Positions 915-15,950 are shown, counted from the first letter of the stretch. The stretch: 64,000 nt of DNA from a virus (IMGVR_UViG_3300009159_000053:1-64000); one strand, 5' to 3'. Numbers and translations: made by a program. Notes: generated from the letters alone by a model not told the origin.

Positions 915-917
915 TAG

Positions 918-1088: not shown

Positions 1089-1104
1089 TTGATTCTCCGA
1101 TCAG

Positions 1105-1245
1105 TTATTTACAACTCGAACAGTAATTAGGAACTCGCATATTGTCTGCGGAGATCATATAGTCCTTAGAGCACCTGGAACAGGTGACCATGACTACATC
1201 CTTAGTACGACGATCTCTTCGCAACTCTAGACCAAATAGATACAT
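1105..1245 (-). CDS. small Zn-ribbon protein (46 aa)
   Basis: Hand-translated MYLFGLEL...CSRC...CSSCK; GAGGAG RBS upstream. Confidence 0.55.
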   Translation of the reverse strand: MYLFGLELRRDRRTKDVVMVTCSRCSKDYMISADNMRVPNYCSSCK

Positions 1246-1247
1246 GA

Positions 1248-1376
1248 CTACTCCTCAAACTCAGTTGGTGGTAAATTGCCCCAAGTTGGGTTTCTTGCAC
1301 CACACATCACGCAGGTTACTTGACCATCCATATCTAGATCAAATTCGCACTTAGTGGCGCAGTCATTAGTACTCAT
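1248..1376 (-). CDS. small Cys-containing protein (42 aa)
   Basis: Hand-translated MSTNDCATKC...CVMCG; TAGGGT 7 nt before ATG (leaderless-like). Confidence 0.45.
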   Translation of the reverse strand: MSTNDCATKCEFDLDMDGQVTCVMCGARNPTWGNLPPTEFEE

Positions 1377-1432
1377 GGGATAAACCCTATACCCTCTTGG
1401 CTACTGCTTTGGTTAGTACTGAGAAAAAATTA

Positions 1433-1588
1433 TTAGGGGCCTTCTTGGGCATCCTTAACTATCTGAGTTATCTGGTCAATGGTAGGGGCCGATAAATTTA
1501 GACCTTTGATACCCTTAAGTATCTCCTTGGCCATCTGCAGGCGTGTACTAGCCTTTATTTCATCAAATAGGTGTGAATGCTGTTCCAT
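1433..1588 (-). CDS. hypothetical protein (51 aa, MEQHSHLF...)
   Basis: 3' part of track ORF 1433..1747; TATAAT 6 nt before the ATG at 1588. Confidence 0.5.
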   Translation of the reverse strand: MEQHSHLFDEIKASTRLQMAKEILKGIKGLNLSAPTIDQITQIVKDAQEGP

Positions 1589-1605
1589 AGCCTTATTATA
1601 TATAG

Positions 1606-1681
1606 TGGAGCGGATGACGAGACTCGAACTCGCAACATCCACCTTGGCAAGGTGGTGCGCTACCAATTGCGCTACATCCGC
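1606..1681 (-). tRNA. trnG: tRNA-Gly (anticodon GCC)
   Basis: Minus strand GCGGATGTAGCGCAATTGGTAGCGCACCACCTTGCCAAGGTGGATGTTGCGAGTTCGAGTCTCGTCATCCGCTCCA: 76 nt cloverleaf, TTCGA T-loop, encoded CCA. Confidence 0.97.
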
Positions 1682-2070
1682 ATATACCCTCATCCTAGAC
1701 CTCTTTCGGCTACTGCTTTGGCCTAAACACGTCAACCATGTCTCCAACCTGGGGGGTCCCCTGTGCGCTGGCGTTTAATGGTGGGGGGGTCTTGGCAATT
1801 TATTAGTGTTAACAATCTCCCCTGACTATTAATCAGGTGCGATCTTGTTAACATGCGCTCAATAACTATGTGTTCCACATGGCTTGATGACTATTTGATG
1901 ACGGCATAACTAATTAGCGTTCGGCTACTGACTACGGCAACAGTTTGTTAATACGGATACCACCAGCCTATTAGCCAACTCTCCGAGTTGTTATCAGATC
2001 AATACATCATTAGTGCCTTATCTCCTTGTAATAGCCAGTTGATCAAACGCATACGCATCACTACATAGCC

Positions 2071-2150
2071 ACATGTTCCATGTAGCAATTAGTATCTCTT
2101 GGCATCACATAACTATTAACTATTAACTATTCATTAGACATGGAACATGT
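2071..2150. repeat. 13-bp perfect inverted repeat flanking (TAACTAT)x3
   Basis: ACATGTTCCATGT 2071-2083 / ACATGGAACATGT 2138-2150; tandem TAACTAT 2110-2130. Confidence 0.85.
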
Positions 2151-2267
2151 ATCTATCTATCTCTTATATATATCTCTCTTAGTTATTACTGGAAAAAAAT
2201 ACTTCGGGCGCAATTTCCCACATAACTAATTAACTAAACATCTCTCACAAGGCGCACACACTTAACT

Positions 2268-2300
2268 AACTAACTTGATGACCAACTCCCAAAGTTAGTT
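2268..2300. repeat. palindromic site AACTAACTT-N15-AAGTTAGTT (copy 1)
   Basis: Read directly; extra half-sites at 2304-2312 and ~2374-2381. Confidence 0.85.
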
Positions 2301-2354
2301 CGCAACTAACTTGCTTCCACCACCGCCACCGCCACCATGAGTAAGTTCGCAATT

Positions 2355-2370
2355 TCGAACGGGTGTTCGA
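2355..2370. promoter_or_regulatory. LexA (SOS) box, actinobacterial type
   Basis: TCGAAC-GGGT-GTTCGA, perfect match to TCGAAC-N4-GTTCGA. Confidence 0.75.
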
Positions 2371-2488
2371 GATAGTTAGTTCCAGCCCCAGTTCGCCAGT
2401 TAGCCCCCACGCTCAGGCTCTCAGGCTCAATCGGGCAAATCGGACATACCGCCACTCCTATCAGGTGATCAAGGTCAACTGGATTTTG

Positions 2489-2497
2489 TGCTAAAAT
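2489..2497 (+). promoter_or_regulatory. extended -10 promoter (TGcTAAAAT) of the plus-strand block
   Basis: TG-n-TAAAAT immediately upstream of the structured leader. Confidence 0.5.
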
Positions 2498-2504
2498 CGG
2501 CTCA

Positions 2505-2790
2505 GGCACACAACGATAAAAGTTTGATCTTTTTAGAAACCTCTAGGGGCAAAAGATCAATAATTTTCAAGTGAAAAAAGCCTAGATAGAGATTGAACTC
2601 TAGTGAACTTAATAAGTCATTAAATCCTTCGGGAACTTATTAAGGTGATAGCAAATCAATTAACTATTAATTACATAGAGAATTAGGCAAACATAATCAA
2701 TATGTTTTCTATTAATTAATCATGGATAGTTTTGTTAATAACAAATGCCGACAGTATCCAATCTGATCTAAGCACTAAGAAGTTAATTAA
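2505..2790 (+). ncRNA. candidate structured leader RNA
   Basis: Nested stems: AGGC/GCCT, TTGATCTTT/AAAGATCAA, TAGAG/CTCTA, CTTAATAAG/CTTATTAAG with TCC-TTCG-GGA, AAACATA/TATGTTT, GGATA/TATCC, TAGTG/CACTA. Confidence 0.5.
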
Positions 2791-2950
2791 TAATAAATAA
2801 AATAAACATATTGCTATATGTGTTTTCTGCTATTACTGGCAATAAATAATCTGCGAATTATCTTTACCAGTAATAGTGGTGAATACATAATGTATTCAAT
2901 ACAACTTAATATAGAACTTAATTCCTTCCCCCCAACAAAAGGAATAAGTA

Positions 2951-3133
2951 ATGAAAACAAATACATATATAGATACAAACGGAAATATCGTTGCTACTGG
3001 AACAATCTCAATTAACCAAATTGATCTCGTTCTATCTAATGGAACTCGGTTCTTTTCTACTCGTTCCGATAATTACACTCTTGATGTTTTGAAAAACTTA
3101 AACATCAACAAAATAGTCAAAGGACTAAAATAA
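2951..3133 (+). CDS. hypothetical protein
   Basis: ORF with AAGGAA RBS; first gene of the plus-strand block. Confidence 0.65.
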   Translation: MKTNTYIDTNGNIVATGTISINQIDLVLSNGTRFFSTRSDNYTLDVLKNLNINKIVKGLK

Positions 3134-3418
3134 ATGGAAAACAAAAAAATGATCATTAATGATCTAACTTATGATGAAGTTGCGTTATTACTTACATCAT
3201 TAAAAACCATGATAATAAAGATGAAGGAACTTGAAGCCCCTGAGTTCTTTATTGAAATGGCAATACCTTTGTTTGATCAGGTCGAGATTATTCTTGATGA
3301 AAAAGTGGCTGAACAAAAAGCGTTCATTGAATTGGTTAGCGACCAACTTGATGATGTTTTACTCGCTTCATCAATTATTGAAAAAGACCCTGATGTGGTA
3401 ATACCTGAATACAAATAA
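3134..3418 (+). CDS. hypothetical acidic protein
   Basis: ORF abutting the previous one; AGGA RBS. Confidence 0.7.
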   Translation: MENKKMIINDLTYDEVALLLTSLKTMIIKMKELEAPEFFIEMAIPLFDQVEIILDEKVAEQKAFIELVSDQLDDVLLASSIIEKDPDVVIPEYK

Positions 3419-3424
3419 ATAAGT

Positions 3425-3605
3425 TTGTGTTAGTAATAACCGATTAAATAGGTTCGGGCGGTTTTCTGAATATCAAATGGTTGCTATTTAATCATTTGAG
3501 TTTTGTTCCTTCATTTATGAACGACAACAGATTAGCCAATGTGTGCCTACATAGAACTCCATAATAGATAAAGAGATCGTCTTTATTCCGTTATTGCTAA
3601 CACAA
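3425..3605 (+). ncRNA. candidate structured RNA closed by a 24-bp terminal stem
   Basis: TTGTGTTAGTAATAACCGATTAAA (3425-3448) pairs with TTTATTCCGTTATTGCTAACACAA (3582-3605); internal hairpins TCAAATGGTT/AATCATTTGA and TTCA-TTTA-TGAA. Confidence 0.6.
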
Positions 3606-3657
3606 TTCAATTCCCCAGTAATACAAACCAAACCAACAAATAGAAACGGAAAACAAA

Positions 3658-4521
3658 ATGACTACAACAAATAACAAATCCTTCTTTGTTCCTTCGCTGG
3701 AACAAACTGGGCATTACATTGAACGATCTTTCGGTGGTGGTATTACCGAAACTCAGATGTATGACTATTCACTTGAAAACAAAATGAATGTGTTAATTGA
3801 AGGTGATGCTGGAACTGGTAAAACAACTTCCGCTATGGCTTACGCATCAAAACGCAAAATGAACTTCTTTGCCGTTCCTTCTAATAACGCACTTGATTTC
3901 ACACAATTAACTGGCGGTTTATTTCCTGATAGCAACGGCGAGTTAAAGTGGATTGACGGCGCAATTACAAAGATCGTTCGTGAAGGTGGCGTGTTATTAA
4001 TTAACGAATTAAATAACGCACCAAAAAATCTTTCACAATATCTAATGAGTTTATTAGATGATCGCCGATCAATTACATTGATGAGCCACGACAACGAAGT
4101 TATCCATGCTCACCCTGATTTATTAGTGGTTGCTGATATGAACCCTAATTATCGTGGAACTCAATTACTTAATGAAGCGTGGAAAGATCGCTTCGCAATT
4201 AAGTTAACTTACAACTACGACACAAAGATTGAAAAACAAATCCTTAGTTCAAGTTCATTACTGGAACTTGCTAATGGTATGCGTTCAACGCTTCGTGTTA
4301 GTGATGTTTCTAATTCATCAACCATATTTGAAACTCCAGTATCAACTCGTATCTTAAAAACATTCGAGAAACTTGCTAAGGGTCTTTCTTATGAGTTTGC
4401 TAGTGAAGTATTTGTTAATAACTTTGCTGATGATGAGAAGCCAGCAGTTCGTATGTTGCTAGAAGGTAGCGAATACAACATCAAATCCGATCTCGGATTA
4501 CTTGAAACAGTTAACGCTTAG
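3658..4521 (+). CDS. MoxR/CbbQ-NirQ-NorQ/CobS-like AAA+ ATPase
   Basis: Walker A GDAGTGKT, Walker B variant LLINE, MNPNYRGT, LNEAWKDRF, STR sensor. Confidence 0.9.
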   Translation: MTTTNNKSFFVPSLEQTGHYIERSFGGGITETQMYDYSLENKMNVLIEGDAGTGKTTSAMAYASKRKMNFFAVPSNNALDFTQLTGGLFPDSNGELKWIDGAITKIVREGGVLLINELNNAPKNLSQYLMSLLDDRRSITLMSHDNEVIHAHPDLLVVADMNPNYRGTQLLNEAWKDRFAIKLTYNYDTKIEKQILSSSSLLELANGMRSTLRVSDVSNSSTIFETPVSTRILKTFEKLAKGLSYEFASEVFVNNFADDEKPAVRMLLEGSEYNIKSDLGLLETVNA

Positions 4522-4535
4522 TTAGGAATAAATAA

Positions 4536-6416
4536 ATGGATTATCCATTCTTAGATTTAGATACGGCTTTAGCCCAATCTGATCTAAAAAATAAGCAGAA
4601 GCAAGAAGCGGAAATTAAACGCCAAAGAGTTGAACGATTTGCTCAATTCTTTGGCAGAGTTAATTCCGCATTAACACTTCGTAAGGTTGAAGTTAAAGTT
4701 GAACATGCGGATATAAACGCACCTGCTTGGTCAGGTGCTAGTCATGTTTGTTTTAACTCTCGATTACTTGGCAACTTAAATACAGCAAAAGAAATTGCTG
4801 GATTGCGTGGTCTTGATTTACACGAAGTTAGCCACATTCTTTATACACCAAGAGAAGGTTCTGAAATCTTTGAATGGTGTAGAGATAATGATTATTTATT
4901 TGCTTACAATGCGTTAGACGATCAACGAATTGAAACTTTATTTACAACTCGTTATCCGTCAACGATTGATTGGTTCACATCAACAATTCTTATTCACTTT
5001 GTTGATGACCCAAAAGCATTTGAAACTTCGTATGGCTTATTGCGTGGTCGGCAATATCTACCAACTGAATTGTTGGCACGATCACGCAACGCATATAAGT
5101 TCCAAGATCAATTAGATGAAATCTGCGAAATTGTTGACCAGTATCGTGTATTAATTTTTCCTGATGATACTGAATTAGCAAAAGATTTAATCAAACGATT
5201 TGATGCGTTAATGCCAAAACAAGAAGTTTCCCAAGACGGATTAGCGGATTGGGAAAAAGATTTACTTGGTAATGGTGGCAAGAAAGTTATGATCTCAATT
5301 AAATCTCCATTTGGTCATGGTGATAGACCGCATGAAGGTATAGAGAGTTCATCAACATCTCGCCCAGTTCCACCAATTCAACAAAAGCGTGATCGTGATA
5401 GGGCTAAAACAAAACCTATTAAAGATGATGCTAAATTGGCAGAACAATTAAAATCAGAACCAGTAATTGAAATTGATTTAACAGATCAAAATAAAAATAC
5501 TGGTAATGGTAAAACTGCTGGTAATCAAACTCCTGATGATCAATCTGCTTTATCAGATATGTTAAATAACATATTAGATAATCAACAGATTGCTAACGAG
5601 ATCAACGACATCATTAGACAAATTGGTGGCTTACCTTCTCTTGCTACTAATAATTCTAAAGAGCCACAAAAATCTCGGTATCATAATCAAACTCCTGATG
5701 CTAAAACTTTCCAAGCATCTCTATCTTTTAGTAGAGAGTTAGAAAGATTAAAAGCAACCTTTGACCCTGCTTGGAATAAATATCAATCACAGGGTCGCTT
5801 ACAGGCGCATAGATATATGCGTGGTGATGATTTAGATACGATCTTTGATCAATGGTCAGAAGGTCAAGATGATGCCACAGAGATCGAGTGCGTAATCCTT
5901 TTAGACAATTCAGGTTCAATGAGTGGCAGTAAAGAAACTTCTGCTTATCGGGCTATGTATGCGATTAAAAGAGCATTAGATCGCATTAACGCAAACACCA
6001 CAGTAATTACATTCAATACGCATACAAACATTTTGTATCGTGCTGATGAAAAAGCAACTGGTGTAATTCGTAATGCTGGCTCTCAGGGTGGAACTAATCC
6101 AACAGAAGCAATTACTTACGCAACTAAAATACTTGCTGAAACTGAAAAGCCAGTTCGTATTTTCTTTGCCATTACTGACGGAGAGTGGGAACATTATTCC
6201 GTTAGAGAAAATGATGAAGCAATTAAGAAACTAGGTAATGCTGGTGTATTAACTGCTTTTGCTTATATTGCTGATCAAGATGAATTAGTAAAACTTGATC
6301 AGGAAAAATCACACTATTGCGAAATTGGTGCGATTGTAAATAATCCCCTTAACTTAATTAGCATGGCTAAATCAATCGTGAAGTATGCGATTAGTCGGCG
6401 ATTAGTTAACGCATAA
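4536..6416 (+). CDS. VWA-domain protein with N-terminal HExxH motif (CobT-like MoxR partner)
   Basis: LHEVSH, NALDDQRIE; MIDAS DNSGSM, GGTNP, ITDG. Confidence 0.88.
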   Translation: MDYPFLDLDTALAQSDLKNKQKQEAEIKRQRVERFAQFFGRVNSALTLRKVEVKVEHADINAPAWSGASHVCFNSRLLGNLNTAKEIAGLRGLDLHEVSHILYTPREGSEIFEWCRDNDYLFAYNALDDQRIETLFTTRYPSTIDWFTSTILIHFVDDPKAFETSYGLLRGRQYLPTELLARSRNAYKFQDQLDEICEIVDQYRVLIFPDDTELAKDLIKRFDALMPKQEVSQDGLADWEKDLLGNGGKKVMISIKSPFGHGDRPHEGIESSSTSRPVPPIQQKRDRDRAKTKPIKDDAKLAEQLKSEPVIEIDLTDQNKNTGNGKTAGNQTPDDQSALSDMLNNILDNQQIANEINDIIRQIGGLPSLATNNSKEPQKSRYHNQTPDAKTFQASLSFSRELERLKATFDPAWNKYQSQGRLQAHRYMRGDDLDTIFDQWSEGQDDATEIECVILLDNSGSMSGSKETSAYRAMYAIKRALDRINANTTVITFNTHTNILYRADEKATGVIRNAGSQGGTNPTEAITYATKILAETEKPVRIFFAITDGEWEHYSVRENDEAIKKLGNAGVLTAFAYIADQDELVKLDQEKSHYCEIGAIVNNPLNLISMAKSIVKYAISRRLVNA

Positions 6417-6427
6417 CAAACAAATGT

Positions 6428-6459
6428 GGTGGAACATGGTCGGGGGGCTATGTTCCACC
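6428..6459 (+). other. intergenic 14-bp hairpin (terminator or processing site)
   Basis: GGTGGAACATGGTC-gggg-GGCTATGTTCCACC; no U-tract. Confidence 0.6.
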
Positions 6460-6483
6460 CTTCTAACTAAGGAGAATAAATAA

Positions 6484-7104
6484 ATGAAATCCGCAGAACT
6501 AAAAATAGGAACTAAATATGGCGTAATTCCAGCATGGGATTATTCATCAAGCGATAAGAAAAATCCTGATCGTGTTCAACGCAATCATGTTGCTAACGCA
6601 ACTCTTGTATCAACTGATAAATATGAATACAAAGTTTATAGATCAGATAAAAAAGATGATCAAAACTTTGCGCCAGCAAATAAAGGTTCTCGTAATGTTG
6701 GTTATTTAGTTTGTTCAGATGATTACATTCAATCAGGACAAGCATCAACAACTATCTTTTGGTTGGCTAGACCACAAGACATTGTTGCTGAATACGCAAC
6801 TCTTGAACCAAAGTGGGCGCAAAGAGAGCAACAAGAATTACTGGAACGCCAAAAGCAAGAAGCAGAACAGAAAGAGCGTGAACGCAAACAGCGTGAAGCA
6901 AGGGAATACCACGAAAGAGTTTCTGCTTCTTTAATCGCATCTCTTAAAACAATTCTTGGTGATCGTGCTAATCACATAACAGTTGACCAACGCAATCGCA
7001 GAGTTGGAGATAACTACATTGAAGTTTCAGAGATGAGTATTGATCTCAAAACTATGAGCATATTAATCGAGAAAGTTCTTGAAGCGAAAGATTTGGTGGG
7101 TTAA
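6484..7104 (+). CDS. hypothetical protein with coiled coil
   Basis: AAGGAG RBS; E/Q/R-rich helix. Confidence 0.75.
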   Translation: MKSAELKIGTKYGVIPAWDYSSSDKKNPDRVQRNHVANATLVSTDKYEYKVYRSDKKDDQNFAPANKGSRNVGYLVCSDDYIQSGQASTTIFWLARPQDIVAEYATLEPKWAQREQQELLERQKQEAEQKERERKQREAREYHERVSASLIASLKTILGDRANHITVDQRNRRVGDNYIEVSEMSIDLKTMSILIEKVLEAKDLVG

Positions 7105-7832
7105 TGACTACACAAACTAAAGATAGTTTTTATCTTGAACGATTAAAAACTAAGTTCAATAATAAAGACGGCTATTGGAGTGTTGGAGATACCAGCACTT
7201 CAATTTGGCAACCACACACTCGCAATAAGTTTGATGTATTAACTGAACAGAAGTTAATTGATATAACTTTTGATGAACAAACTTACAAAAGTTTTCAACT
7301 AATAATTGTTGGGTTTAATTATGAGTTCAGATCAGTTTTGGACTTAAATGGAAATACAACTGATAACTATTTGGCTGATAATGAAATTGGTGGATACGCA
7401 AATGATGTTAAATCTTTTGTTCACTACGAAGGTATTGCTTACGAAATCGGTGGCGTTGGCGATACACGACAAAACTTAAATTGGTTAGGTGAACTTGCCA
7501 CGCTTTATATTTATGGTGGTGATACTGACCCCAATAAAGTTATTAAAAAATGCCAAAAGAAATTAGATTTACTTTCACAAATTGTAGATGTGAGAGATGA
7601 ATTAATTTCTATTTCTAATGAAAGGATTGGTTCATACGATACAAAAAATCCATACAACATTAATGTTGGAGATCAGGTGTTTATTCAAGCGCATGGGCGT
7701 TTGCGTAAAGGCAAAATTGTATCCACAACTGGTAGCAGATTTAATGTTGCTTATCTAACTCCGTCAAACCATAGTGATCTTAAATATAAGACACTTAGAT
7801 TGGATTGTTTGTGGCTACCAATAAATCCGTAA
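7104..7832 (+). CDS. hypothetical protein with C-terminal SH3/Tudor-like motif
   Basis: TAATG coupling; INVGDQVFI...RKGKIVS...FNVAY. Confidence 0.7.
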   Translation: MTTQTKDSFYLERLKTKFNNKDGYWSVGDTSTSIWQPHTRNKFDVLTEQKLIDITFDEQTYKSFQLIIVGFNYEFRSVLDLNGNTTDNYLADNEIGGYANDVKSFVHYEGIAYEIGGVGDTRQNLNWLGELATLYIYGGDTDPNKVIKKCQKKLDLLSQIVDVRDELISISNERIGSYDTKNPYNINVGDQVFIQAHGRLRKGKIVSTTGSRFNVAYLTPSNHSDLKYKTLRLDCLWLPINP

Positions 7833-8422
7833 TTAAATTAAAACGAACTAAAGTGTGTATAGGTTGCTTTACTGCTCTACCACTTAATCGGTTTAATAAA
7901 CACATTGACGGAAAATACAAAGTTAGGGCAAGGTGTAAATCTTGCTTTGCCCTAATGCGTAAAGGTTCATCAACCCGCAAAGCAGAAAAATTAAACTTAC
8001 TTGCTAAGGGTAGAAGGCGTTGTAGTTATTGTCGCAAGATCAAATCACTATCTCGCTTTCAACCTAAATCACACGCAAGCGGTAATAAAGGCTATGAAGG
8101 GGCTTGTAAGCCTTGTGTGTCTATCAGACAAGCGGAAAAACACAAAACTAATCACAAAGAAGTAAGGGAGTTTGTATTTAATTATTTACTACAAAATCCT
8201 TGTATTGATTGTGGTGAAGGTAATGTGCTGGCTTTGGAGTTCGATCACTTACATAGTAAAAAGTTTAATATCGGAACTGCGCTTGGTAGCAACAAACTTT
8301 CTAAATTAATTAAATCAGAAATTAAAAAGTGCGTTGTTAGGTGTTCCAGTTGCCACCGAATTAAAACTCATCAAGAACAAAATAGTTGGAGATACCAATT
8401 ATTTTTAGAAAGGAGTAAATAA
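7805..8422 (+). CDS. HNH endonuclease with tandem N-terminal Zn-finger repeats
   Basis: CxxC pairs, then CIDCG...LEFDH...KKFNI...KCVVRCSSCHRIKT; paralogous to 546..914; start uncertain. Confidence 0.8.
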   Translation: MFVATNKSVIKLKRTKVCIGCFTALPLNRFNKHIDGKYKVRARCKSCFALMRKGSSTRKAEKLNLLAKGRRRCSYCRKIKSLSRFQPKSHASGNKGYEGACKPCVSIRQAEKHKTNHKEVREFVFNYLLQNPCIDCGEGNVLALEFDHLHSKKFNIGTALGSNKLSKLIKSEIKKCVVRCSSCHRIKTHQEQNSWRYQLFLERSK

Positions 8423-8581
8423 ATGAGATCAAAAACTTATTATCGAGTTCGAACTGCGGTTCGTATTCTTTTTTGGAGTGCGTTAGCAGTTGGGATTTAT
8501 TACTTAGCAACACATATTAACTGGGTCGGTGATCACTATTGCTTTGGCACTATTGATCAATGTTATTTAGGTGGTAAGTAA
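8423..8581 (+). CDS. small membrane protein (52 aa)
   Basis: Hand-translated MRSKTYYRVR...ILFWSALAVGIYYL; AAGGAG RBS. Confidence 0.6.
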   Translation: MRSKTYYRVRTAVRILFWSALAVGIYYLATHINWVGDHYCFGTIDQCYLGGK

Positions 8582-8758
8582 ATGGGTTATGTAGAAATTG
8601 TTAGACAAGTTCAAGATCACGAATTAGATTTATGTGATCAATGCGGTCAGCAAGGCGTTCGCAATAATGGCAAAACAATTACTGATAACTATTCTCAGGA
8701 CATTCTTTGGTTTTGCTATAACTGCGTAGAAACACAAAAGAGATCACTCTCTCGCTAA
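8582..8758 (+). CDS. small Zn-finger protein (58 aa)
   Basis: Hand-translated MGYVEIV...CDQC...WFCYNC. Confidence 0.6.
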   Translation: MGYVEIVRQVQDHELDLCDQCGQQGVRNNGKTITDNYSQDILWFCYNCVETQKRSLSR

Positions 8759-8767
8759 CTTAAAATT

Positions 8768-8907
8768 GTTGGGTAGGCGTTAACACAAGACCTTACTGGG
8801 GTTTTGTTTTCATTCCCCACTCCTTTCACTTGTGAAGGGCGGTCAAGACTTTTATTTCCTTAATTTGCTTTGGATAATAAAACGAGCCGTATCTGCGCCT
8901 ACTCAAC
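8768..8907 (+). ncRNA. candidate multi-branch structured RNA
   Basis: 12-bp closing stem GTTGGGTAGGCG/CGCCTACTCAAC; inner GACC/GGTC, TGGGG/CCCCA, CCTTTCA-CTTG-TGAAGGG, TTTTATT/AATAAAA. Confidence 0.6.
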
Positions 8908-8930
8908 TCCTAATAGAATTGGAGTAAGTA

Positions 8931-9089
8931 ATGTTTAATGAAAATGAAAAGAAAAAGATAGTTCACCAAAGAATTGCGTATCAAAAATCTTTATCCGAAG
9001 TTGCTCGTATGTTTGGAACTTCAAGAATACAGATTAGAAAGATAGAAACGGAATATCTAAATCAATTAAGGGAGAATAAAAATGGCTGA
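8931..9089 (+). CDS. small HTH protein (sigma region 4-like)
   Basis: Hand-translated ...KSLSEVARMFGTSRIQIRKIE; GGAG RBS. Confidence 0.6.
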   Translation: MFNENEKKKIVHQRIAYQKSLSEVARMFGTSRIQIRKIETEYLNQLRENKNG

Positions 9090-9282
9090 TGATTTACTTG
9101 ATGAAAGTTTATTTGATGAAGTGTTTAGCACCGAGCCTGAATGTAATTGTGAGTGCGGTTGTAAAGTTCCAGTATTAGGTCAATGCGTTGATTGCGGTGA
9201 TGATACTGGGCATCAAAATAACAATGGATTACCTAAATACGATTACTTGAACGAACTATTTACTACAAAGGAGAGCCAATGA
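9082..9282 (+). CDS. small Cys-rich acidic protein
   Basis: CNCECGC...CVDC. Confidence 0.65.
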   Translation: MADDLLDESLFDEVFSTEPECNCECGCKVPVLGQCVDCGDDTGHQNNNGLPKYDYLNELFTTKESQ

Positions 9283-9590
9283 ACCAAGAACAAATGGATT
9301 TAATTAAATCTATTAACTTTGCTAATGAGTTTATTAAAATTGTTCGTGGGTTTAAGTTAGATCAAGAACGGCAAGATAGTTTGCCACAAGAAGTAAAAGA
9401 GTATTTAGCCAACGAACACCTAAACAAATTAATTACAGATCAGGGATTAGAACCTGAAATGTTAGTTTGGGGCTTACTACACATGATTGAAATACTCTTA
9501 AATGTTGCTGAATTAGAACCTAATGATTTAGTTGAAATTATGGAGAAGTTTGTTGAACAAATATCTAATAGTAATGGAGATCAAACATGA
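9279..9590 (+). CDS. hypothetical protein
   Basis: ATGA-coupled ORF; AAGGAG RBS. Confidence 0.7.
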   Translation: MNQEQMDLIKSINFANEFIKIVRGFKLDQERQDSLPQEVKEYLANEHLNKLITDQGLEPEMLVWGLLHMIEILLNVAELEPNDLVEIMEKFVEQISNSNGDQT

Positions 9591-9910
9591 CTAGACCTAA
9601 AAGCCAAGTGTCTTTTACTAAAGCAAGAAAAGTAGTAAAACCAGTTGAATTAACCACACCTACTCCACAAGATATTGATGATGCGCCATGCCAAACAGTT
9701 GACCCTGAAATCTTTTTTCCTGATCCAACTGATGTAATTGGTATTAAAAAAGCCAAAACTTTTTGTGGTAATTGCGATCAAGCAATTAAAACTAAATGTT
9801 TATCTTTCGCATTATCTAACAAAGTTAGATATGGCGTATGGGGTGGATTAACTGAGATTGAACGCCAAAGTTTGCTTCGCAAACAATATAGGAGTGGTAT
9901 CAATGGTTAA
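9587..9910 (+). CDS. whiB: WhiB-family Fe-S transcription factor
   Basis: C-QTVDPEIFFP...AKTFCGNC...CLSFAL...GVWGGLTEIER. Confidence 0.92.
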   Translation: MTRPKSQVSFTKARKVVKPVELTTPTPQDIDDAPCQTVDPEIFFPDPTDVIGIKKAKTFCGNCDQAIKTKCLSFALSNKVRYGVWGGLTEIERQSLLRKQYRSGING

Positions 9911-10373
9911 TACTTTTATTCCTTATCCTGACTTTGTTAAGTCTGCTAAGGCTCTTGATTACAGGCGATTAGGTAAGCAACGAGTTGAAGCGTGGCAAAT
10001 ACTTAGGGCGTTAATGGGTATTAGTCAGGGCTGGCGTAATCACCCTGCTACAAAGATGTGGCGTGGGCATGAGAAGGCTTTGTGTGAATACGGAATTGCG
10101 ATCTGCCAAGAGTGGATAGATCGTGGCTACAAAGATACTTTGTTGCCCAGTTTTGTAGCAATACACCCAACCTTCCCTGATACTGGATTACCTTTTTGGT
10201 TTGGTAATTCAGAACTTCATAATTCGCATCAAAGTAATCTAAATCGTAAAGATAATACTTATTATCAATTTAATGTGCCAGTAGATTTACCTTATCTATG
10301 GGCTGATACGGAAACTAAAACTACAAAGTGGGGAACTAAACCTAATGAAACTAAGCAGAAAGTTAAAAGATAA
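9903..10373 (+). CDS. pyrimidine-dimer DNA glycosylase / endonuclease V-like (MSMEG_6728 family)
   Basis: TFIPYPDF...LDYRRLGKQRVEA.QIL...WRNHPA..MW.G...SHQSNL.RK; start moved to ATG 9903. Confidence 0.85.
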   Translation: MVNTFIPYPDFVKSAKALDYRRLGKQRVEAWQILRALMGISQGWRNHPATKMWRGHEKALCEYGIAICQEWIDRGYKDTLLPSFVAIHPTFPDTGLPFWFGNSELHNSHQSNLNRKDNTYYQFNVPVDLPYLWADTETKTTKWGTKPNETKQKVKR

Positions 10374-10375
10374 AC

Positions 10376-10564
10376 ATGAGCGAATGGCTAACAAATACAG
10401 ACATAGCAAAACTAACTGGATTAAAGATCGAAACTCTACACAGTTATCTAAATCGCAACACCCTTCCCAAACCCGACAAATACATGGGGAGAACACCAGT
10501 TTGGTTAACAACAACCATAAAACAATGGGCATCAGAGAGAGAATTGGAGATTGAAAATGAATAA
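10376..10564 (+). CDS. AlpA/excisionase-like winged-HTH protein
   Basis: LTNTDIAKLTGLKIETL..Y..RNTLPKPD..GRTPVW. Confidence 0.8.
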   Translation: MSEWLTNTDIAKLTGLKIETLHSYLNRNTLPKPDKYMGRTPVWLTTTIKQWASERELEIENE

Positions 10565-10718
10565 AGATCAAGCAATTACTGAATTGTTAAATCTACGCCA
10601 GTTGTGGGAATTAGAACAACAAAATACAGAAGCAGACGGCAATTCAGATTACGCAACCTATACAGGTGCTATCAACGCTATTGATGTTGCTATTAAAATT
10701 GTAAAGGAGATCAAGTAA
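10557..10718 (+). CDS. hypothetical protein (53 aa)
   Basis: Hand-translated MNKDQAITELL...; fills the gap and overlaps both neighbours. Confidence 0.55.
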   Translation: MNKDQAITELLNLRQLWELEQQNTEADGNSDYATYTGAINAIDVAIKIVKEIK

Positions 10719-11254
10719 TGGGTTTAGATATGTATTTGTATGCTGAAAAATATATTGGTAGCGGTGCTGATAAAACTGGTTCTTATACCAAAATTAAAAA
10801 TCTTGCTGGATTAAAAGATTTACCAACTCCTGATTTTTCTGCTTTAATTGTTAAATCAATGGTTGGTTATTGGCGCAAAGCAAACTCTATTCATGGCTGG
10901 ATTGTTGATAAGTGTGGAGAAGGCGTTGATAAGTGCCAAGTAATTTATTTAAGTGATGAAGATTTATTACAATTAAAAAATGATTGTATTAAGGCTTTGG
11001 CTAATCCTAGTCGTGAATATCAGATAGAAAACCAAAAAGTTTTTTATCAATTATGCGATTACTTAAATAGTTTAGAAACTGAATTAACTCCTGATACTTT
11101 TCAAAATCCACTTCCACCAGTTGACGGATTTTTCTTTGGTGGTAGTGATCTGACCGATCATTACTATTACCAACTGGAATACACGATTGATTTAATTACT
11201 TCCCTATTAGAGAGCGATCACGAATTAGGATTTAGTTATCAAGCCAGTTGGTAG
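10718..11254 (+). CDS. conserved phage protein (MGLDMY...YWRKAN...YQASW family)
   Basis: Motifs MGLDMYL, YWRKANSIHGW, GFFFG, YQASW. Confidence 0.8.
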   Translation: MGLDMYLYAEKYIGSGADKTGSYTKIKNLAGLKDLPTPDFSALIVKSMVGYWRKANSIHGWIVDKCGEGVDKCQVIYLSDEDLLQLKNDCIKALANPSREYQIENQKVFYQLCDYLNSLETELTPDTFQNPLPPVDGFFFGGSDLTDHYYYQLEYTIDLITSLLESDHELGFSYQASW

Positions 11255-11258
11255 ATTG

Positions 11259-11334
11259 AACTAACTTTATTTAATTCCAGAAAAGTTAGTTCACGCTCAA
11301 TAACTAACTTGTCTGGTGTTCCACCAAGTTAGTT
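11259..11334. repeat. tandem pair of AACTAACTT-N15-AAGTTAGTT sites (copies 2 and 3)
   Basis: 11259-11291 and 11302-11334; perfect arms with different 15-bp cores. Confidence 0.9.
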
Positions 11335-11374
11335 CCAAGCCTGACCGCCTAATTCCCTATGTAGCCGATAGTTC

Positions 11375-11411
11375 AGCCCTTAGTCCGATTTGGATTAGGG
11401 GCTTATCTTTT
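11375..11411 (+). terminator. probable intrinsic terminator of the early operon
   Basis: AGCCCTTAGTCC-gattt-GGATTAGGGGCT followed by TATCTTTT. Confidence 0.6.
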
Positions 11412-11422
11412 GATTAAGAACC

Positions 11423-11478
11423 TACTCACCAGTAGTATTACTCGCCAGTAGAAGGGTCATTACTCGCCAGTAGAAGGG
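11423..11478. repeat. direct repeats upstream of the recombinase (arm-type or operator candidates)
   Basis: ATTACTCGCCAGTAGAAGGG at 11437-11456 and 11459-11478; TACTCACCAGTAG at 11423-11435. Confidence 0.85.
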
Positions 11479-11485
11479 GCAACTT

Positions 11486-12823
11486 ATGGCGTATGTGATT
11501 AAACGCAACGGCAGATTTACAGGCTATTACAGGCTTCAAAATCGCCGTTTATCGGCTGGCACATGGGCTAATGAAACCGAAGCCATGTATCACGCCATAC
11601 AAGCCGAGAAGCAGGGCTTAAAAGCCCCCTCAAAGGCTAATTTAAGGGTGGTTGATTTTGTAGATCAATGGCTGGCGGTGGCTGATCTAATGCCGATCAC
11701 AAAAAAGGGCTATAAGTCGGTCTTAACTAGATTTGTAATTCCAGTTATAGGAGATCGAGAACTAACTTCCCTGAAGCCTTCAGACCTAGTTAAGTTAATT
11801 GATGATCTCAAACTATCGGGAGTTAGACCTGCCACCTTAAATCAGGTGAAGGCTTCTCTTGGCTCAATGTTTTCAAAGTTGGTTAATGCTGGTCAATTAG
11901 AGAGCAATCCGACACATGGAATTAAGATCAAGGTCAATCATGCCAATATATCTAATCTCCTAGACCCTGATGAGTTTAAGGAGATCATTAAGCATTTACC
12001 GACACAAGGAACTAAATTATTCGCCCAATTCTTAGTAGCAAGTGGGTGTCGGTTTGGTGAAGCAACGGAAGTAAGAGCAAAAGACATTAATTTCAAAACT
12101 GGCGAAATCTTTATTCAAAGGCGAGTTAGTGATCTAGGAACAAATTACAACAATGGAACTAGGTTCATGGTGATAGATGCCACCAAGTCAGGGCATAAGA
12201 GAAGCCTAGTAATAGGAAAAGCCCTATTACAGCAGTTAAATGCGTATGTCCTAGCAAAAGGCATAGCAAAAGATGATCTGATGTTTCCAAGAACAATACT
12301 CTTAACGGAAGGTAAACTTAAAGGTTCACGAAGCGCAAAGCCCTCTCGACCATTCGAGAAAGGCGGAAAACAGTTCCAGCATGGAACTCTTTACTCCTAT
12401 ACACATGGGGGTTGTAGATGCGAAGGGTGTAGGCAAGCAGTAGCAAACTACCGCAAAGCCAAAGCCCAAGCAGAAGCACTAGCAGAAGCAGAGCAGGTAA
12501 GAAGCCGAAGCCGTAAGGCAAAGCAGAAGCATCAGCAGAAGCACAAGCAAGGGAGTTTCATCAACAATATGAGCCACATGCCTCGTGATGTATGGAGAAC
12601 AACTTGGAACAAAGCAATAGCCAAGTCCGCAATCGGCTGGTCGCCTAGAACTCATGATTTACGACATGCAAACGCTACGCAGTTGTTAAAGAACGGCATA
12701 GATGTCCATGAAGTAAAAGAGCGATTAGGACACCAATCGATCAAGACGACAGAGCGGTATTTACACCGCCTTCGTTCACACCAGTCAAAGGCATCTGAAA
12801 GTGCCAACGACTATTTGGAGTGA
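11486..12823 (+). CDS. int: tyrosine recombinase/integrase with an internal Zn-finger insertion
   Basis: GCRFGE (R), TKS (K), HDLRH, LGH, TTERY (Y); N-terminal arm- and core-binding domains. Confidence 0.93.
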   Translation: MAYVIKRNGRFTGYYRLQNRRLSAGTWANETEAMYHAIQAEKQGLKAPSKANLRVVDFVDQWLAVADLMPITKKGYKSVLTRFVIPVIGDRELTSLKPSDLVKLIDDLKLSGVRPATLNQVKASLGSMFSKLVNAGQLESNPTHGIKIKVNHANISNLLDPDEFKEIIKHLPTQGTKLFAQFLVASGCRFGEATEVRAKDINFKTGEIFIQRRVSDLGTNYNNGTRFMVIDATKSGHKRSLVIGKALLQQLNAYVLAKGIAKDDLMFPRTILLTEGKLKGSRSAKPSRPFEKGGKQFQHGTLYSYTHGGCRCEGCRQAVANYRKAKAQAEALAEAEQVRSRSRKAKQKHQQKHKQGSFINNMSHMPRDVWRTTWNKAIAKSAIGWSPRTHDLRHANATQLLKNGIDVHEVKERLGHQSIKTTERYLHRLRSHQSKASESANDYLE

Positions 12824-13425
12824 TGATGAAAACAAACGCAAGAATAAGAGCCGAGCAGATGCCAAAGGCAATAGCCAAAGCATCAGCAAAAGCCCAAGCA
12901 AGACTAAAGGCTTTAATACTTGGTGGGTCAATTTCGACCTTAGCCGTAGCATTTGGAGTAGCAACTACATCAGATGCCATAGCACCAACAAGAGCCGAAG
13001 CACTAATAGTTAGCGAAACAACAAACGAAGCAACCTTAAAGAAGTATGAAAATACTCATAAGTTAACCGATCTTGAATTGGTTGAGTTGCTTCATGCCGT
13101 AGGCTTTACAGGCACAGACCTGAAAGAAGCATGGGCAGTTGCTAAGAAAGAAAGTAATGGGCGACCCCTCGCTCACAATCCTAATACAAACACAGGTGAT
13201 AACTCGTGGGGCATGTTTCAAATAAACATGATCGGAGAGTTAGGCAAAGATCGTAGAGAAAAATTTGGTTTAGAAAATAATGCCGAATTGCTCAACCCTG
13301 TGGTTAATGCAAAGATCGCTTACTACATGAGTAGAGGCGGTAAAGATTGGAGTTCTTGGCATGGACTTACTCCAAAGACTAAGCAGTTAATGGAACAGTT
13401 CCCAGCAAAGAACGCAAAGCAATAG
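12820..13425 (+). CDS. membrane-anchored or secreted lysozyme-like transglycosylase
   Basis: Hydrophobic N-terminal segment; KKESNG, SWGMFQINM, LLNPVVNAKIAY, DWSSW. Confidence 0.85.
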   Translation: MMMKTNARIRAEQMPKAIAKASAKAQARLKALILGGSISTLAVAFGVATTSDAIAPTRAEALIVSETTNEATLKKYENTHKLTDLELVELLHAVGFTGTDLKEAWAVAKKESNGRPLAHNPNTNTGDNSWGMFQINMIGELGKDRREKFGLENNAELLNPVVNAKIAYYMSRGGKDWSSWHGLTPKTKQLMEQFPAKNAKQ

Positions 13426-13482
13426 CAGAAGCCATAGCAGAAGCATAAGCAAGCAAAGCAATAGGAGAAGCAATAGGAGAAG
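13414..13482 (+). repeat. AGCA-rich repeat tract (CAAAGCAATAG[C/G]AGAAG units)
   Basis: GCAAAGCAATAGCAGAAG at 13414-13431 is identical to 13898-13915; variants at 13454 and 13467. Confidence 0.85.
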
Positions 13483-13504
13483 CCCCATCAGAGATGGTGG
13501 GGCT
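13481..13504 (+). terminator. GNRA-capped hairpin, possible terminator
   Basis: AGCCCCATCA-GAGA-TGGTGGGGCT. Confidence 0.45.
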
Positions 13505-13511
13505 ATCTTAA

Positions 13512-13553
13512 AACTAACTTACCTGGCAGCCAGGAGAAGTTAGTCAGTTAGTT
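13512..13553. repeat. AACTAACTT-N16-AAGTTAGTC site (copy 4) plus an extra half-site
   Basis: 13512-13545, followed by AGTTAGTT at 13546-13553. Confidence 0.75.
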
Positions 13554-13563
13554 AGGGGCAATC

Positions 13564-13890
13564 ATGGGAGAACACTCTTTCGTAGATCGTTATATAGAAT
13601 TAGATAAGCAATACATACAGCATAAGCAAGAACAATATAAACATTACAAAGAACCTAATCTGCCTTACACCGAAAAATTGTTTTGGGATAAATTAATTCA
13701 TTTAGGTTGGAGAAAAGATTACACAACAACAGAGTGTTTAGTATTAGTTTGCTCTGTTTGTGAAGGAGCCATAACAAAGGTAGTTCTTAAAAATAATGTA
13801 AATATTAGACCTTTATTAAATATTGAAGATAAAGTAGAAATTCACAAGACAGCATATTGCAAAGCAACAGCAAAGCAGAGCAAAGCATAA
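13564..13890 (+). CDS. hypothetical protein with CxxC...HxxxxC
   Basis: Last ORF of the plus-strand block; GGGG RBS. Confidence 0.65.
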   Translation: MGEHSFVDRYIELDKQYIQHKQEQYKHYKEPNLPYTEKLFWDKLIHLGWRKDYTTTECLVLVCSVCEGAITKVVLKNNVNIRPLLNIEDKVEIHKTAYCKATAKQSKA

Positions 13891-13916
13891 GCAAAAGGCA
13901 AAGCAATAGCAGAAGG

Positions 13917-15950
13917 CTATTGATTATCTTTAATTAGCCTAACTTCGCAGGCATCGGTTGTACAGTAAGCCTCACCAATAGCATCAGCAGCCATACCAGC
14001 ATAAACTCCTGACAAATCAATTGGAAATAATTTCATAGTTCCTTCTGATTCATATTCTTCAGCAGTGATTTGAGTGTAAGGCATTTGAGGATAGGTAGCA
14101 TTACCAGAAGGTAAGAAGGATACGGTTTTAAGTTGACCATCATACATATGCAAAGCCGTACCAATAGCCGAGGCTTCGGTCTCAGGATTAAAACTAATAG
14201 TCACACTTACAGAGTTGTCTGACCAATACCTTTGTGCAGTTGCAGCAAGAGCCATCTTTTCGTAAATGCTTACGTCTTTTTCAGAACGTCTAGCATTAGA
14301 TTTGATTGGGAAAAATACAACAGAAGTAGTATTTGGAGATTCACTTGCTGGTTCTACTCTGTAGTTAGCCATCTTAAACAAAGGCAACATTGGATCAGAG
14401 TTTGCAAACCGAATAGCACGATTAAAGTACTCTCCGCCTACAGTCCAGTGAACGCCAGGTGATTCACCTGCCAAGATGCTAACTGTTCCACTTGGCTTCA
14501 CGGTAGTCATCTTGATTGACTCACGAATACCAAGCCATTCAGAATAAGTGGTGTCGTAGGTCTTGATTACTTTGTATCCTTCATCCATCCACTGACGGAG
14601 TATTGGTAATCCTTTTCTATCTGCAAAGTTAGCCACTCCTGAAACAGAAGTTCCAATGCGCCGATTTCTTTGCATTATGGCGTTTGTTTCTTCCCAGTGC
14701 GTAGGGATAAGGGTTACCGTCTTAGCGTATAGATAAGCAAACTTTAGAGTTCTTTTAAAATCTTCTATATCGTCGTGGCGATTTAGATAGGTCTCTACTA
14801 AAGTACAGCATTCAAAAGATTCAAGAGATTGTTCTGCACAGGGGTTATATCCTGCAATGCGCCAATCTTTATTATTAATTGGATCAATGAGACGACCATA
14901 TTGTTTCGAGATATCCATCCAAACAACTCCTGGCTCTCCGTTACGAGCAATGCCGTCAATAATGTTATCTAAATTATCTCCAACATTTACCGATACAGAG
15001 TTGTTGGACATCCAAGCCCATCCTGGTTTTTCTGGATTGTAAGAGTTTCTTTCTGGAAATTTTTCTGCGTTCTTTAAATTTAAGAAATCTTCATCATCAA
15101 TTCGACCAATAAGTAACTCAGCAGACCGCCGAACATTACCAGATACAACACAAACCCCAATAAGGTTCCCAATATCAGCAATATCAATGCGGGTAAGTTT
15201 CTCACCAGCACGTTCTTTGAAGATTCCATCGATGTAATTATGTAACTTAATGAGCGGTTCTGGACCTGCTGCTGTTCCACCAAATGTCTTGATGGGTTCG
15301 CCTGCCTTGCGAATTTCTGCATAATCAAACCTAGGACGTTTTGAGTCTGATCGTAGGTAAGAGTTAATAAGCGTGGCCGTTGACTCGACCCAGCCTTCTC
15401 TGGTATCTGGAATGACATATATTTCCCCCTCCTGCGGTTTGTAAATCGTAAAGTCTTTGTCGGCACCCTTATCGTCGAACCCAACTCCAACACCAAGCAT
15501 ACTAGCCTCCATTAAAAACGCAAAAGGCTTTGCTGGATCGGTCTTAGTCATTGAGCCAGTCGATACAAACGCACAGTTTTGTAAGGCTGCTGAGTTACGT
15601 TTTTCATTTACAAGCGGAGTACCCATAACCCAAAGACCCCTACCTGGTGGTGTCCACTTTAAGTTCCACAAACGGTCGAAAGCCTCTTTGGCTGAGGCGG
15701 CTGCTTTAGCATCTGACCAAGGTAAGCGGTTTGTTTTAGCGTGGTCTTTTTGTAAAGAATACATACCGTTGATTACTCTCTCACAAACGTCAACCCAAGT
15801 TTCTTTAGTACCATCTGCTTTAAGTCGTGAATAGGTCCTAAGAAAAGTTATTTCACCAACGGAATTACCAGCGGCATCTTGATATCCGAAGGGAGCCTTT
15901 AAACTCTTATATGGTGTAACAAACTCTTCGGCTAACTTAAAAGAAAACAT
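13917..15950 (-). CDS. nrdJ: class II (adenosylcobalamin-dependent, monomeric RTPR-type) ribonucleotide reductase
   Basis: RTYSR, PPGRGLW, NC, GNVRRSA, NPCAEQ, TTVKPSGT, C-terminal CxxDxC. Confidence 0.95.
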   Translation of the reverse strand: MFSFKLAEEFVTPYKSLKAPFGYQDAAGNSVGEITFLRTYSRLKADGTKETWVDVCERVINGMYSLQKDHAKTNRLPWSDAKAAASAKEAFDRLWNLKWTPPGRGLWVMGTPLVNEKRNSAALQNCAFVSTGSMTKTDPAKPFAFLMEASMLGVGVGFDDKGADKDFTIYKPQEGEIYVIPDTREGWVESTATLINSYLRSDSKRPRFDYAEIRKAGEPIKTFGGTAAGPEPLIKLHNYIDGIFKERAGEKLTRIDIADIGNLIGVCVVSGNVRRSAELLIGRIDDEDFLNLKNAEKFPERNSYNPEKPGWAWMSNNSVSVNVGDNLDNIIDGIARNGEPGVVWMDISKQYGRLIDPINNKDWRIAGYNPCAEQSLESFECCTLVETYLNRHDDIEDFKRTLKFAYLYAKTVTLIPTHWEETNAIMQRNRRIGTSVSGVANFADRKGLPILRQWMDEGYKVIKTYDTTYSEWLGIRESIKMTTVKPSGTVSILAGESPGVHWTVGGEYFNRAIRFANSDPMLPLFKMANYRVEPASESPNTTSVVFFPIKSNARRSEKDVSIYEKMALAATAQRYWSDNSVSVTISFNPETEASAIGTALHMYDGQLKTVSFLPSGNATYPQMPYTQITAEEYESEGTMKLFPIDLSGVYAGMAADAIGEAYCTTDACEVRLIKDNQ

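Follow-up and report, generated by a model that had tools for sequence, protein, structure and literature searches.

The DNA described here is a stretch of 64,000 nucleotides, called the window throughout, which comprises bases 1-64000 of an 86,892-bp viral contig from IMG/VR (IMGVR_UViG_3300009159_000053, below G000). Near its left edge lies a block of plus-strand genes that forms a restriction-site desert: within 1757-12666 there is no site of the 23-word set that we counted. The avoidance is specific to palindromes, recurs in related genomes and changes word by word between close lineages. We favour, with a probability of about 0.6, the reading that the phage genome is linear and ends in a short terminal repeat and that the block is its leading segment, resembling T5 and T7 in that this segment would enter the cell first.

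Source genome and layout

The contig is classed as linear and 87% complete, has a GC content of 40% and belongs to a myovirus carrying whiB. Nearly all long open reading frames (ORFs) are on the minus strand, which predominates from 13917 onward. They encode a class II-like ribonucleotide reductase, a DpdA-like protein, a family-A DNA polymerase, helicases, a UvsX-like recombinase, a Cas4-like exonuclease, and contractile tail sheath and baseplate proteins. The single plus-strand block, at about 2950-13890, is one rightward unit that is read inward from the left edge.

The nearest cultured phages are the Streptomyces phages BRock (Borockvirus), GiJojo and pSt2308 and the Bacillus phage BCD7, with protein identities of 26-46%. 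The tail sheath is 43-46% identical to those of the Streptomyces phages over 61-62% of the protein and 28% identical to that of BCD7; for the DpdA-like protein the values are 32-33% and 26%. Megablast of the block and of 30-50 kb returned a tRNA match only, or none, and no near-identical phage record. The phage DNA is present in 20 runs from 10 studies; most of the runs listed are labelled as freshwater or lake metagenome, the rest as plain 'metagenome' or 'marine'. The WhiB protein, the cultured relatives and the freshwater sources together indicate that the host is probably actinobacterial.

A desert of restriction sites

The desert and its flanks are made up of the following elements.

1606..1681, minus strand: tRNA-Gly(GCC), found with ARAGORN; last gene of the minus-strand body, just outside the desert, at normal site density
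1751..1964: predicted short direct terminal repeat, the putative left end of the virion DNA, aligned with the BRock and GiJojo repeats
1757..12666, plus strand: complete desert, free of the 23-word set
1965..2950, plus strand: non-coding leader, with no long ORF and free of sites
12667..13916, plus strand: leaky distal zone with 8.8 sites/kb, containing an SLT_3 lysozyme-like gene (12820-13425), a 108-aa ORF and WAGCA repeats
13904..13922, both strands: terminator-like hairpin (consensus match only), where the block and the minus-strand genes converge
13917..15950, minus strand: ribonucleotide reductase (phrog_367, 4e-136), the first gene beyond the block, with 41 sites/kb from its first bases
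16129..17634, minus strand: DpdA-like protein, named 'queuine tRNA-ribosyltransferase' in PHROG (phrog_887, 2e-56)

The edges are sharp. Left of 1756 the 23-word set occurs at 38-55 sites/kb, with the last sites at 1748, 1755 and 1756, and on the right the desert ends with the plus-strand operon. The site-free zone takes in about 1.2 kb of non-coding leader and predicted terminal repeat as well as the genes.

An earlier note on this DNA had placed the gaps for GTAC at 1548-13960, for TGCA at 1538-12667 and for ACGT from 1732 to about 14270, had described GGCC and CCWGG as depleted, and had stated that GATC, CATG and TCGA persist. Counting reproduced its coordinates to within 3 bases. GTAC is absent between 1545 and 13960, TGCA between 1536 and 12667 (it then recurs at 13308 and 13858) and ACGT between 1729 and 14272. 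There is no GGCC between 1720 and 15375 and no CCWGG between 1748 and 13522. Within 1550-13959 the three persisting words number 77 (GATC), 45 (CATG) and 17 (TCGA).

The same note had proposed a comparison with codon-preserving shuffles, in which the observed counts prove to be far below expectation. We made 300 synonymous-codon shuffles of 1757-12666, in which 8,897 of the 10,910 bases were shuffled and intergenic DNA was left untouched. None of the 300 came near the observed zeros, as follows.

AGCT: shuffle mean 35.6, minimum 24, observed 0
TGCA: shuffle mean 27.5, minimum 18, observed 0
ACGT: shuffle mean 20.4, minimum 12, observed 0
GTAC: shuffle mean 17.6, minimum 8, observed 0
CGCG: shuffle mean 11.5, minimum 3, observed 0
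GGCC: shuffle mean 9.9, minimum 3, observed 0
CCGG: shuffle mean 5.7, minimum 1, observed 0

GATC (71 observed, 63.9 expected), CATG, AATT and TTAA occur at the shuffle expectation in the same interval.

The desert is wider than was first noted. The block also lacks GANTC, GTNAC, GCNGC, CCNGG, TGWCA, CASTG, ACSGT and CGWCG, as well as RAATTY, TTTAAA, AATATT and TTATAA. The AT-only sites TTTAAA, AAATTT, AATATT and TTATAA occur 78, 53, 35 and 29 times outside the block and not once inside it. The non-palindromic words GGATG, CCATC and GTCTC are missing in either orientation, hence the avoidance is symmetric at the level of DNA. Among the 64 palindromic hexamers, 54 are missing from 1757-12666; the ten survivors are TGATCA, TAATTA, ATTAAT, GTTAAC, ATATAT, TATATA and four rarer words. 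Other 11-kb windows of the genome hold a median of 37 palindromic hexamers, and at most 29 are missing from any of them. Non-palindromic hexamers lose only some 12% of their diversity in the block, which makes the effect palindrome-specific.

The desert might in principle be due to chance, to composition or codon usage, or to faulty assembly, and the block is indeed slightly more AT-rich than the rest. The shuffles, the specificity for palindromes and the presence of the pattern in five independent complete genomes (see below) rule out these explanations, and the recovery of the same DNA from 20 runs speaks against an assembly artefact in particular. We consider their likelihood to be negligible.

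A further word is scarce. On the coding strand of 1757-13333 GAGG is missing altogether, and CCTC and GAGG together number 4, with 27 expected from the shuffles; the relatives have no such pattern. This scarcity could reflect avoidance of MnlI-type sites or a weak use of Shine-Dalgarno sequences.

Two tiers of avoidance

The avoidance is two-tiered: a few tetramers are missing from the whole genome, and a much broader set is missing from one genome end. AGCT, CCGG and CGCG do not occur in any of the 86,892 bp of the contig. AGCT and CCGG are likewise absent throughout all five complete relatives, among which GATC is absent from three whole genomes, TCGA from one and CGCG from one. We compared 62 loci centred on DpdA, each 8 kb or longer: 30 lack AGCT, CCGG and CGCG, 13 lack AGCT and CCGG, and 8 lack AGCT, CCGG and GATC. 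AGCT has a normal density in a few lineages. Genome-wide avoidance of restriction sites is said to be a classical phenomenon in phages. The zeros for AGCT, CCGG and CGCG match that pattern, but the second, much broader tier that is restricted to one end differs from it.

Conservation and turnover in related phages

Relatives were collected from IMG/VR by means of the DpdA-like protein (262 stretches) and the CobT-like protein encoded in the block (16 stretches). Five of them, G001 to G005, are complete genomes, measure 94.7-99.8 kb and give circular assemblies. Repeating the analysis in related phages, as the earlier note had suggested, showed that in all five the CobT gene is surrounded by a desert of 12-14 kb, a weak one in G005. 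The block genes are collinear in all five, and the right edge of the desert lies near the end of the plus-strand unit in each. The palindromic hexamers in the first 11 kb are compared below.

G003: 9 observed, 186 expected; 60 of 64 words missing
G004: 20 observed, 187 expected; 59 of 64 words missing
G002: 31 observed, 187 expected; 56 of 64 words missing
G000: 65 observed, 207 expected; 54 of 64 words missing
G001: 66 observed, 198 expected; 50 of 64 words missing
G005: 139 observed, 174 expected; 32 of 64 words missing
BRock: 178 observed, 180 expected; 20 of 64 words missing

Each genome has its own set of missing words. G005 keeps ACGT, GTAC and TGCA and is without GCNGC, CCNGG, GGNCC, CASTG and GGATG; G003 and G004 additionally lack ATAT.

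The words are exchanged rapidly. We aligned the loci of 31 close relatives with the block (82-99% identity, 184.5 kb, 14,534 mismatches) and found just 193 sites from a 26-word set; most lineages have almost exclusively one of these words, TGCA in some and GTNAC in others. Whole words have been gained or lost between lineages that are about 90-97% identical. One locus, L011, which is 89.5% identical, holds 35 TGCA in 8 kb, and at 30 of these G000 differs by exactly one base; 26 of the 30 differences are synonymous and 4 are not. This turnover by single, mostly synonymous bases means that the selection is current, is specific to particular words and acts on the DNA, not on the proteins.

The turnover also bears on the origin of the block, for which the earlier note had offered a different host history as its second suggestion. 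The block contains an integrase gene and an Xis-like gene, its GC content is 36.8% compared with 40.3%, and there is a tRNA gene nearby, all of which would suit a recently acquired integrative element. The tRNA 3' end is directed away from the block, however, and AGCT, CCGG and CGCG are missing from the block just as they are from the whole genome. Its gene order is the same in all five relatives, with identities that rank as they do for backbone genes, consistent with collinear vertical inheritance. Profile scans with alignments of the DpdA-like and CobT-like proteins found no integrated copy or relative in 185,579 species genomes. We therefore rejected a foreign origin, which collinearity and the synonymous turnover of avoided words between such similar lineages rule out; it is very improbable.

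The predicted genome end

The record of BRock gives a 221-bp direct repeat at both ends of the genome, directly followed by a plus-strand block (gp1-27, 869-12128); nearly all BRock genes outside this block are on the opposite strand. GiJojo, which was sequenced independently, has a 197-bp terminal repeat, with the equivalent block at the right end and reading inward. Both repeats begin with GGNGGGCC and contain TTAAAGGT-GGGGG, and GGCTACTG follows about 120-145 bp further on. The aligned element in G000 has in common with them the GGNGGG start, then TTAA-GGT-GGGGG, then GGCTACTG after another 134-145 bp. These motifs stand 134-142 bp apart in a conserved non-coding element at the left edge of the desert in G000, G001, G003, G004 and G005, and in part in G002.

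By homology to the two repeats, the physical genome end is predicted at about window position 1751. The left edge of the desert lies within 10 bp of this point, and the DNA beyond it (window 1-1750) has a normal density of 38-55 sites/kb.

Read depth was also considered. In the source run the block has a contig depth of 24.6, with 26.6 and 25.9 in its neighbours, so the block is not a long terminal repeat. The summed depth of the bin 1603-2136 is 36 against 25 in run X1 and 73 against 40 in run X4, but it is not readable as a repeat, because each contig has a single depth value and other contigs are drawn in by the tRNA. In run X4 the contigs break at 1558/1962, which proves nothing about the termini. 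The contigs of 4 of the 24 listed runs revealed neither starts nor ends of molecules.

Genes and elements of the block

The plus-strand block contains the following genes.

3134..3418, plus strand: 94-aa, very acidic protein with a pI of 4.2 and a net charge of -12, encoded immediately ahead of the CobS-like gene
3658..4521, plus strand: AAA_5 (CobS/MoxR-like) ATPase (Pfam PF07728, 5e-21; phrog_249), present in all five relatives
4536..6416, plus strand: VWA-domain CobT-like protein (Pfam VWA_2 and CobT_C), present in all five relatives at 41-82% identity
6484..7832, plus strand: two conserved proteins of 206 and 242 aa, kept in five and four of the five relatives respectively
7805..8422, plus strand: basic HNH endonuclease (phrog_2255, 3e-30; phrog_5558, 1.9e-11)
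9587..9910, plus strand: WhiB-type transcription factor (Pfam PF02467, 5.7e-18; phrog_472)
9858..10373, plus strand: pyrimidine-dimer DNA glycosylase (Pfam PF03013, 3.5e-21)
10376..10564, plus strand: Xis/AlpA-like helix-turn-helix protein (phrog_597, 4e-14; weak phrog_66; Pfam HTH_17 and AlpA below cut-offs)
11486..12823, plus strand: tyrosine integrase (Pfam PF00589, 3e-23; phrog_1), present in all five relatives; TGCA returns in its 3' end at 12667

Several of these products are candidates for the protection of the remaining genome, namely the 94-aa acidic protein, the CobS/CobT pair, the 206-aa and 242-aa proteins and the HNH protein, whose N-terminal part is similar to Lar-like restriction-alleviation proteins in PHROG. 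The 206-aa and 242-aa proteins have no Pfam or PHROG family, and the protein atlas gave no usable match. The 94-aa protein likewise has no match among the Pfam and PHROG families; G001, G003 and G004 encode homologues of 94-95 aa at the same position, with a pI of 4.1-4.3, which makes four of the six genomes with G000 included. A small, very acidic protein near the genome start recalls Ocr of the T7-like phages, and the 94-aa protein is a candidate DNA mimic. In the G002 block (7724-8998 in the rotated sequence) there are four tandem paralogous genes for very acidic proteins of 97-115 aa with a pI of 4.1-4.4, which are further candidate DNA mimics.

The non-coding leader contains TCGAAC-GGGT-GTTCGA at 2355-2370, to which some of the persisting TCGA sites of the desert belong. 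The pattern TCGAAC-N4-GTTCGA may be a LexA-type box of actinobacteria, and it suggests that the block may be under SOS control. A promoter search found no excess over shuffles at the leader or at the distal border; it used an E. coli-type consensus, which is uninformative for an actinobacterial host. The integrase, the Xis-like gene and the LexA-type box suggest a temperate lifestyle.

Upstream of the integrase there are a 34-nt inverted repeat (11258-11335), a hairpin with a 13-bp stem (11375-11403) and a tandem 22-nt repeat (11437-11480). These could be an attP or a regulatory region. The distal part of the block carries a polar field of WAGCA words with a 6-nt period (12448-13928), which covers the 3' end of the integrase gene as well as the SLT gene and intergenic DNA. 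Of the double WAGCA words on the plus strand, 11 of 13 in G000 and 6 of 6 in G001 lie in this field, a concentration that is weaker in the other relatives; part of the field is Ala/Lys-rich coding sequence. The repeats may signal a pause or a stop, or may simply reflect such coding sequence.

A leading segment that may enter first

The earlier note's first suggestion, that the block is injected first, is the best-supported reading of the desert, on the indirect evidence of its start at the predicted end, the inward direction of its genes and the normal site density beyond that end. That BRock and GiJojo both carry an inward-reading block directly at the terminal repeat also supports it. The virion DNA would start at about window position 1751, and the next 11-12 kb would be one rightward operon transcribed inward by the host RNA polymerase. 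This leading segment would be inside the cell, and exposed, before any phage counter-defence has been made. Each site for a restriction enzyme circulating among the hosts would be lethal there and would be purged, mostly by synonymous changes, word by word and lineage by lineage. The products of the block would then protect the remaining genome, which either enters later, as in the second-step transfer of T5, or is shielded or repaired once these products exist. The remaining approximately 85 kb would thus keep a normal site density, except for those tetramers that the protection misses: AGCT, CCGG and CGCG, and GATC or TCGA in relatives. We infer that this end, as placed by homology, enters first, that entry or protection is staged, and that one or more of the candidates listed above protects.

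A number of observations weigh against this reading. The genome end was placed by homology to phages whose proteins are only 26-46% identical, and the complete relatives assemble as circles, which fits a short terminal repeat and would also fit circular permutation. BRock has the same architecture and no desert, and the desert of G005 is weak, so the architecture alone is insufficient for the signal. Every gene past the block is oriented toward it, and transcription in the manner of T7 therefore cannot pull in the remaining DNA. The 20 block ORFs, searched against Pfam and PHROG, include no T5 A1 or A2 and no named anti-restriction family, the Lar-like PHROG match being the only one of its kind. 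The integrase, the Xis-like gene and the LexA-type box look more like a lysogeny or early-control module than one for host takeover.

Finally, a model of simultaneous entry of the entire genome accounts for most of the same facts. Only the early operon would have to stay intact, and cuts elsewhere would be repaired or out-replicated once the early and recombination proteins have been made. The desert does coincide with one transcription unit, genes for a UvsX-like recombinase and a Cas4-like exonuclease are present, and the orientation of the genes after the block is wrong for transcription-driven entry. A 2026 preprint concerns ligase-dependent repair of nuclease cuts in PhiKMV phages. On the other hand, the leader and the predicted terminal repeat are as free of sites as the genes, and double-strand cuts normally open DNA to exonucleases, so that about 37 sites/kb over 75 kb would require very efficient repair. 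The exact start of the desert at the predicted physical end is not explained by this model either, though the operon starts at the same junction. We regard whole-genome entry as unlikely.

Modification and the proposed protection of the remaining genome

Methylation by the phage does not explain the sites tolerated elsewhere, since methyltransferases of the C5, N6/N4 and D12 families were found in none of the five genomes searched. The sole candidate DNA-modification gene that we found is that for the DpdA-like protein, 2 kb past the block. It is 75-86% identical across the family, matches phrog_887 and has no Pfam family; the GiJojo annotators name its homologue 'dpdA-like'. It is conceivable that the rest of the genome carries a modification such as 7-deazaguanine and that the block is left unmodified, perhaps for the host polymerase. 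PMC6884629 describes 7-deazaguanines as a shield of phage DNA against restriction.

Most of the evidence points away from such a modification. The Pfam family TGT and QueC were found in none of the five genomes searched (FolE, QueD and QueE were not searched), though the host could supply preQ0. The known action of DpdA is post-replicative and based on motifs, according to a 2023 preprint, and the block lacks no short, G-containing, non-palindromic motif that could exempt it. A modified guanine cannot protect the AT-only sites that are abundant outside the block. BRock and GiJojo have the same DpdA-like gene and no desert; BRock and BCD7 are not named in the main text of PMC6884629 or of the 2023 preprint. 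We judge modification of the remaining genome to be quite unlikely as the cause of the desert.

In GiJojo, a gene at 103430-104083, immediately beside the terminal block and on the opposite strand, is annotated as an ArdA-like antirestriction protein.

Comparison with known systems

T5-like phages are described in PMC10644984 as withstanding Type I and Type II systems unless a site lies in the first-step-transfer (FST) region. The likeness to the T5 FST lies in a terminal early-gene segment of about 8-12 kb in which restriction sites matter, while they do not matter elsewhere. The T5 record annotates the region and an injection stop signal. The position of the segment at a physical end is matched here, by homology, and so is the selection against sites in the segment with tolerance elsewhere, which is stronger here than in T5. 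In our comparison, which took only T5 bases 1-9140 and 62001-100000, the T5 FST lacks no tetramer, has an observed/expected ratio for palindromic hexamers of 0.81 and lacks 37 hexamers, with at most 28 missing from control windows. In the family described here 6-7 tetramers are missing, the ratio is 0.05-0.33 in five of six genomes, and 50-60 hexamers are missing. The T5 FST differs in sitting in a 10.2-kb terminal repeat, whereas the repeat predicted here is about 214 bp and the block is at single-copy depth. A1, A2 and dmp were not found in the 20 block ORFs with Pfam and PHROG, T5 proteins not having been queried directly. The present phage also differs from T5 in being a myovirus whose host is probably an actinobacterium.

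The left end of T7-like phages resembles the present case in its short direct terminal repeat, here predicted, and in early genes that read inward, but the remaining genes are here on the opposite strand, unlike in T7-type entry. A profile search with PF00940 for a T7-type RNA polymerase gave no match, and the control also gave none. With its short repeat, its lack of A1 and A2 and the genes that face it, the block belongs to neither the T5 nor the T7 system.

According to PMC12455610, Autographiviridae such as Murciavirus are subject to restriction only by way of motifs in the region that is injected early. A single Type I motif was at issue there, whereas dozens of Type II-like words are missing here. 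The same source describes the leading regions of conjugative plasmids, where the DNA that enters first is depleted of restriction targets and encodes anti-defence genes. That DNA differs in being single-stranded and in entering by conjugation, and it is not a phage genome.

The likeness is closest in layout to BRock and GiJojo, which have a short terminal repeat with the same motifs, a terminal block that is about 10-12 kb long and reads inward, and nearly all of their remaining genes on the opposite strand. Their blocks share no detectable protein with the G000 block, and BRock shows no depletion of palindromes (observed/expected 0.99).

Significance

It is already known that restriction acts mainly on first-injected DNA, in T5 and recently in T7-like phages, and we found no report in the literature of such a desert in these phages. 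The desert is a new, extreme variant of this known principle in an uncultured, widespread phage family, and it is the clearest example among the genomes compared, with up to 60 of 64 hexamer palindromes missing from 11 kb. Whole-genome averages, as used in avoidance surveys, would miss such a signal at one end.

If the leading-segment reading is true, the sequence of an uncultured phage could reveal by itself at which place, and in what manner, its DNA is first exposed, and the missing words could reveal which restriction specificities its uncultured hosts possess. The block should then encode a broad-spectrum anti-restriction activity among its proteins of no known family. A wider proposal is more tentative, and we place it at somewhat under even odds: that this freshwater actinophage myovirus family evolved staged delivery independently of T5 and T7, with a leading segment of about 12 kb encoding a broad anti-restriction function that neutralises dozens of Type II specificities and fails on AGCT, CCGG, CGCG, GATC and TCGA. 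In that case the two sets of missing words would amount to a lineage-by-lineage record of the restriction enzymes at work in an uncultured host population, and would also tell which of them the phage counter-defence fails to overcome.

Other observations

HNH endonuclease-like proteins are encoded at both 546-914 and 7805-8422, and the two share similar C-terminal motifs. The first gene is just beyond the predicted right end and the second within the block; in BRock and GiJojo, too, an HNH gene lies beside that end.

GTAC has a peak at 70001-74000 of the contig, beyond the window, with 35-41 sites per 2 kb compared with about 7 elsewhere. The peak is within a 918-aa ORF at 71593-74349.

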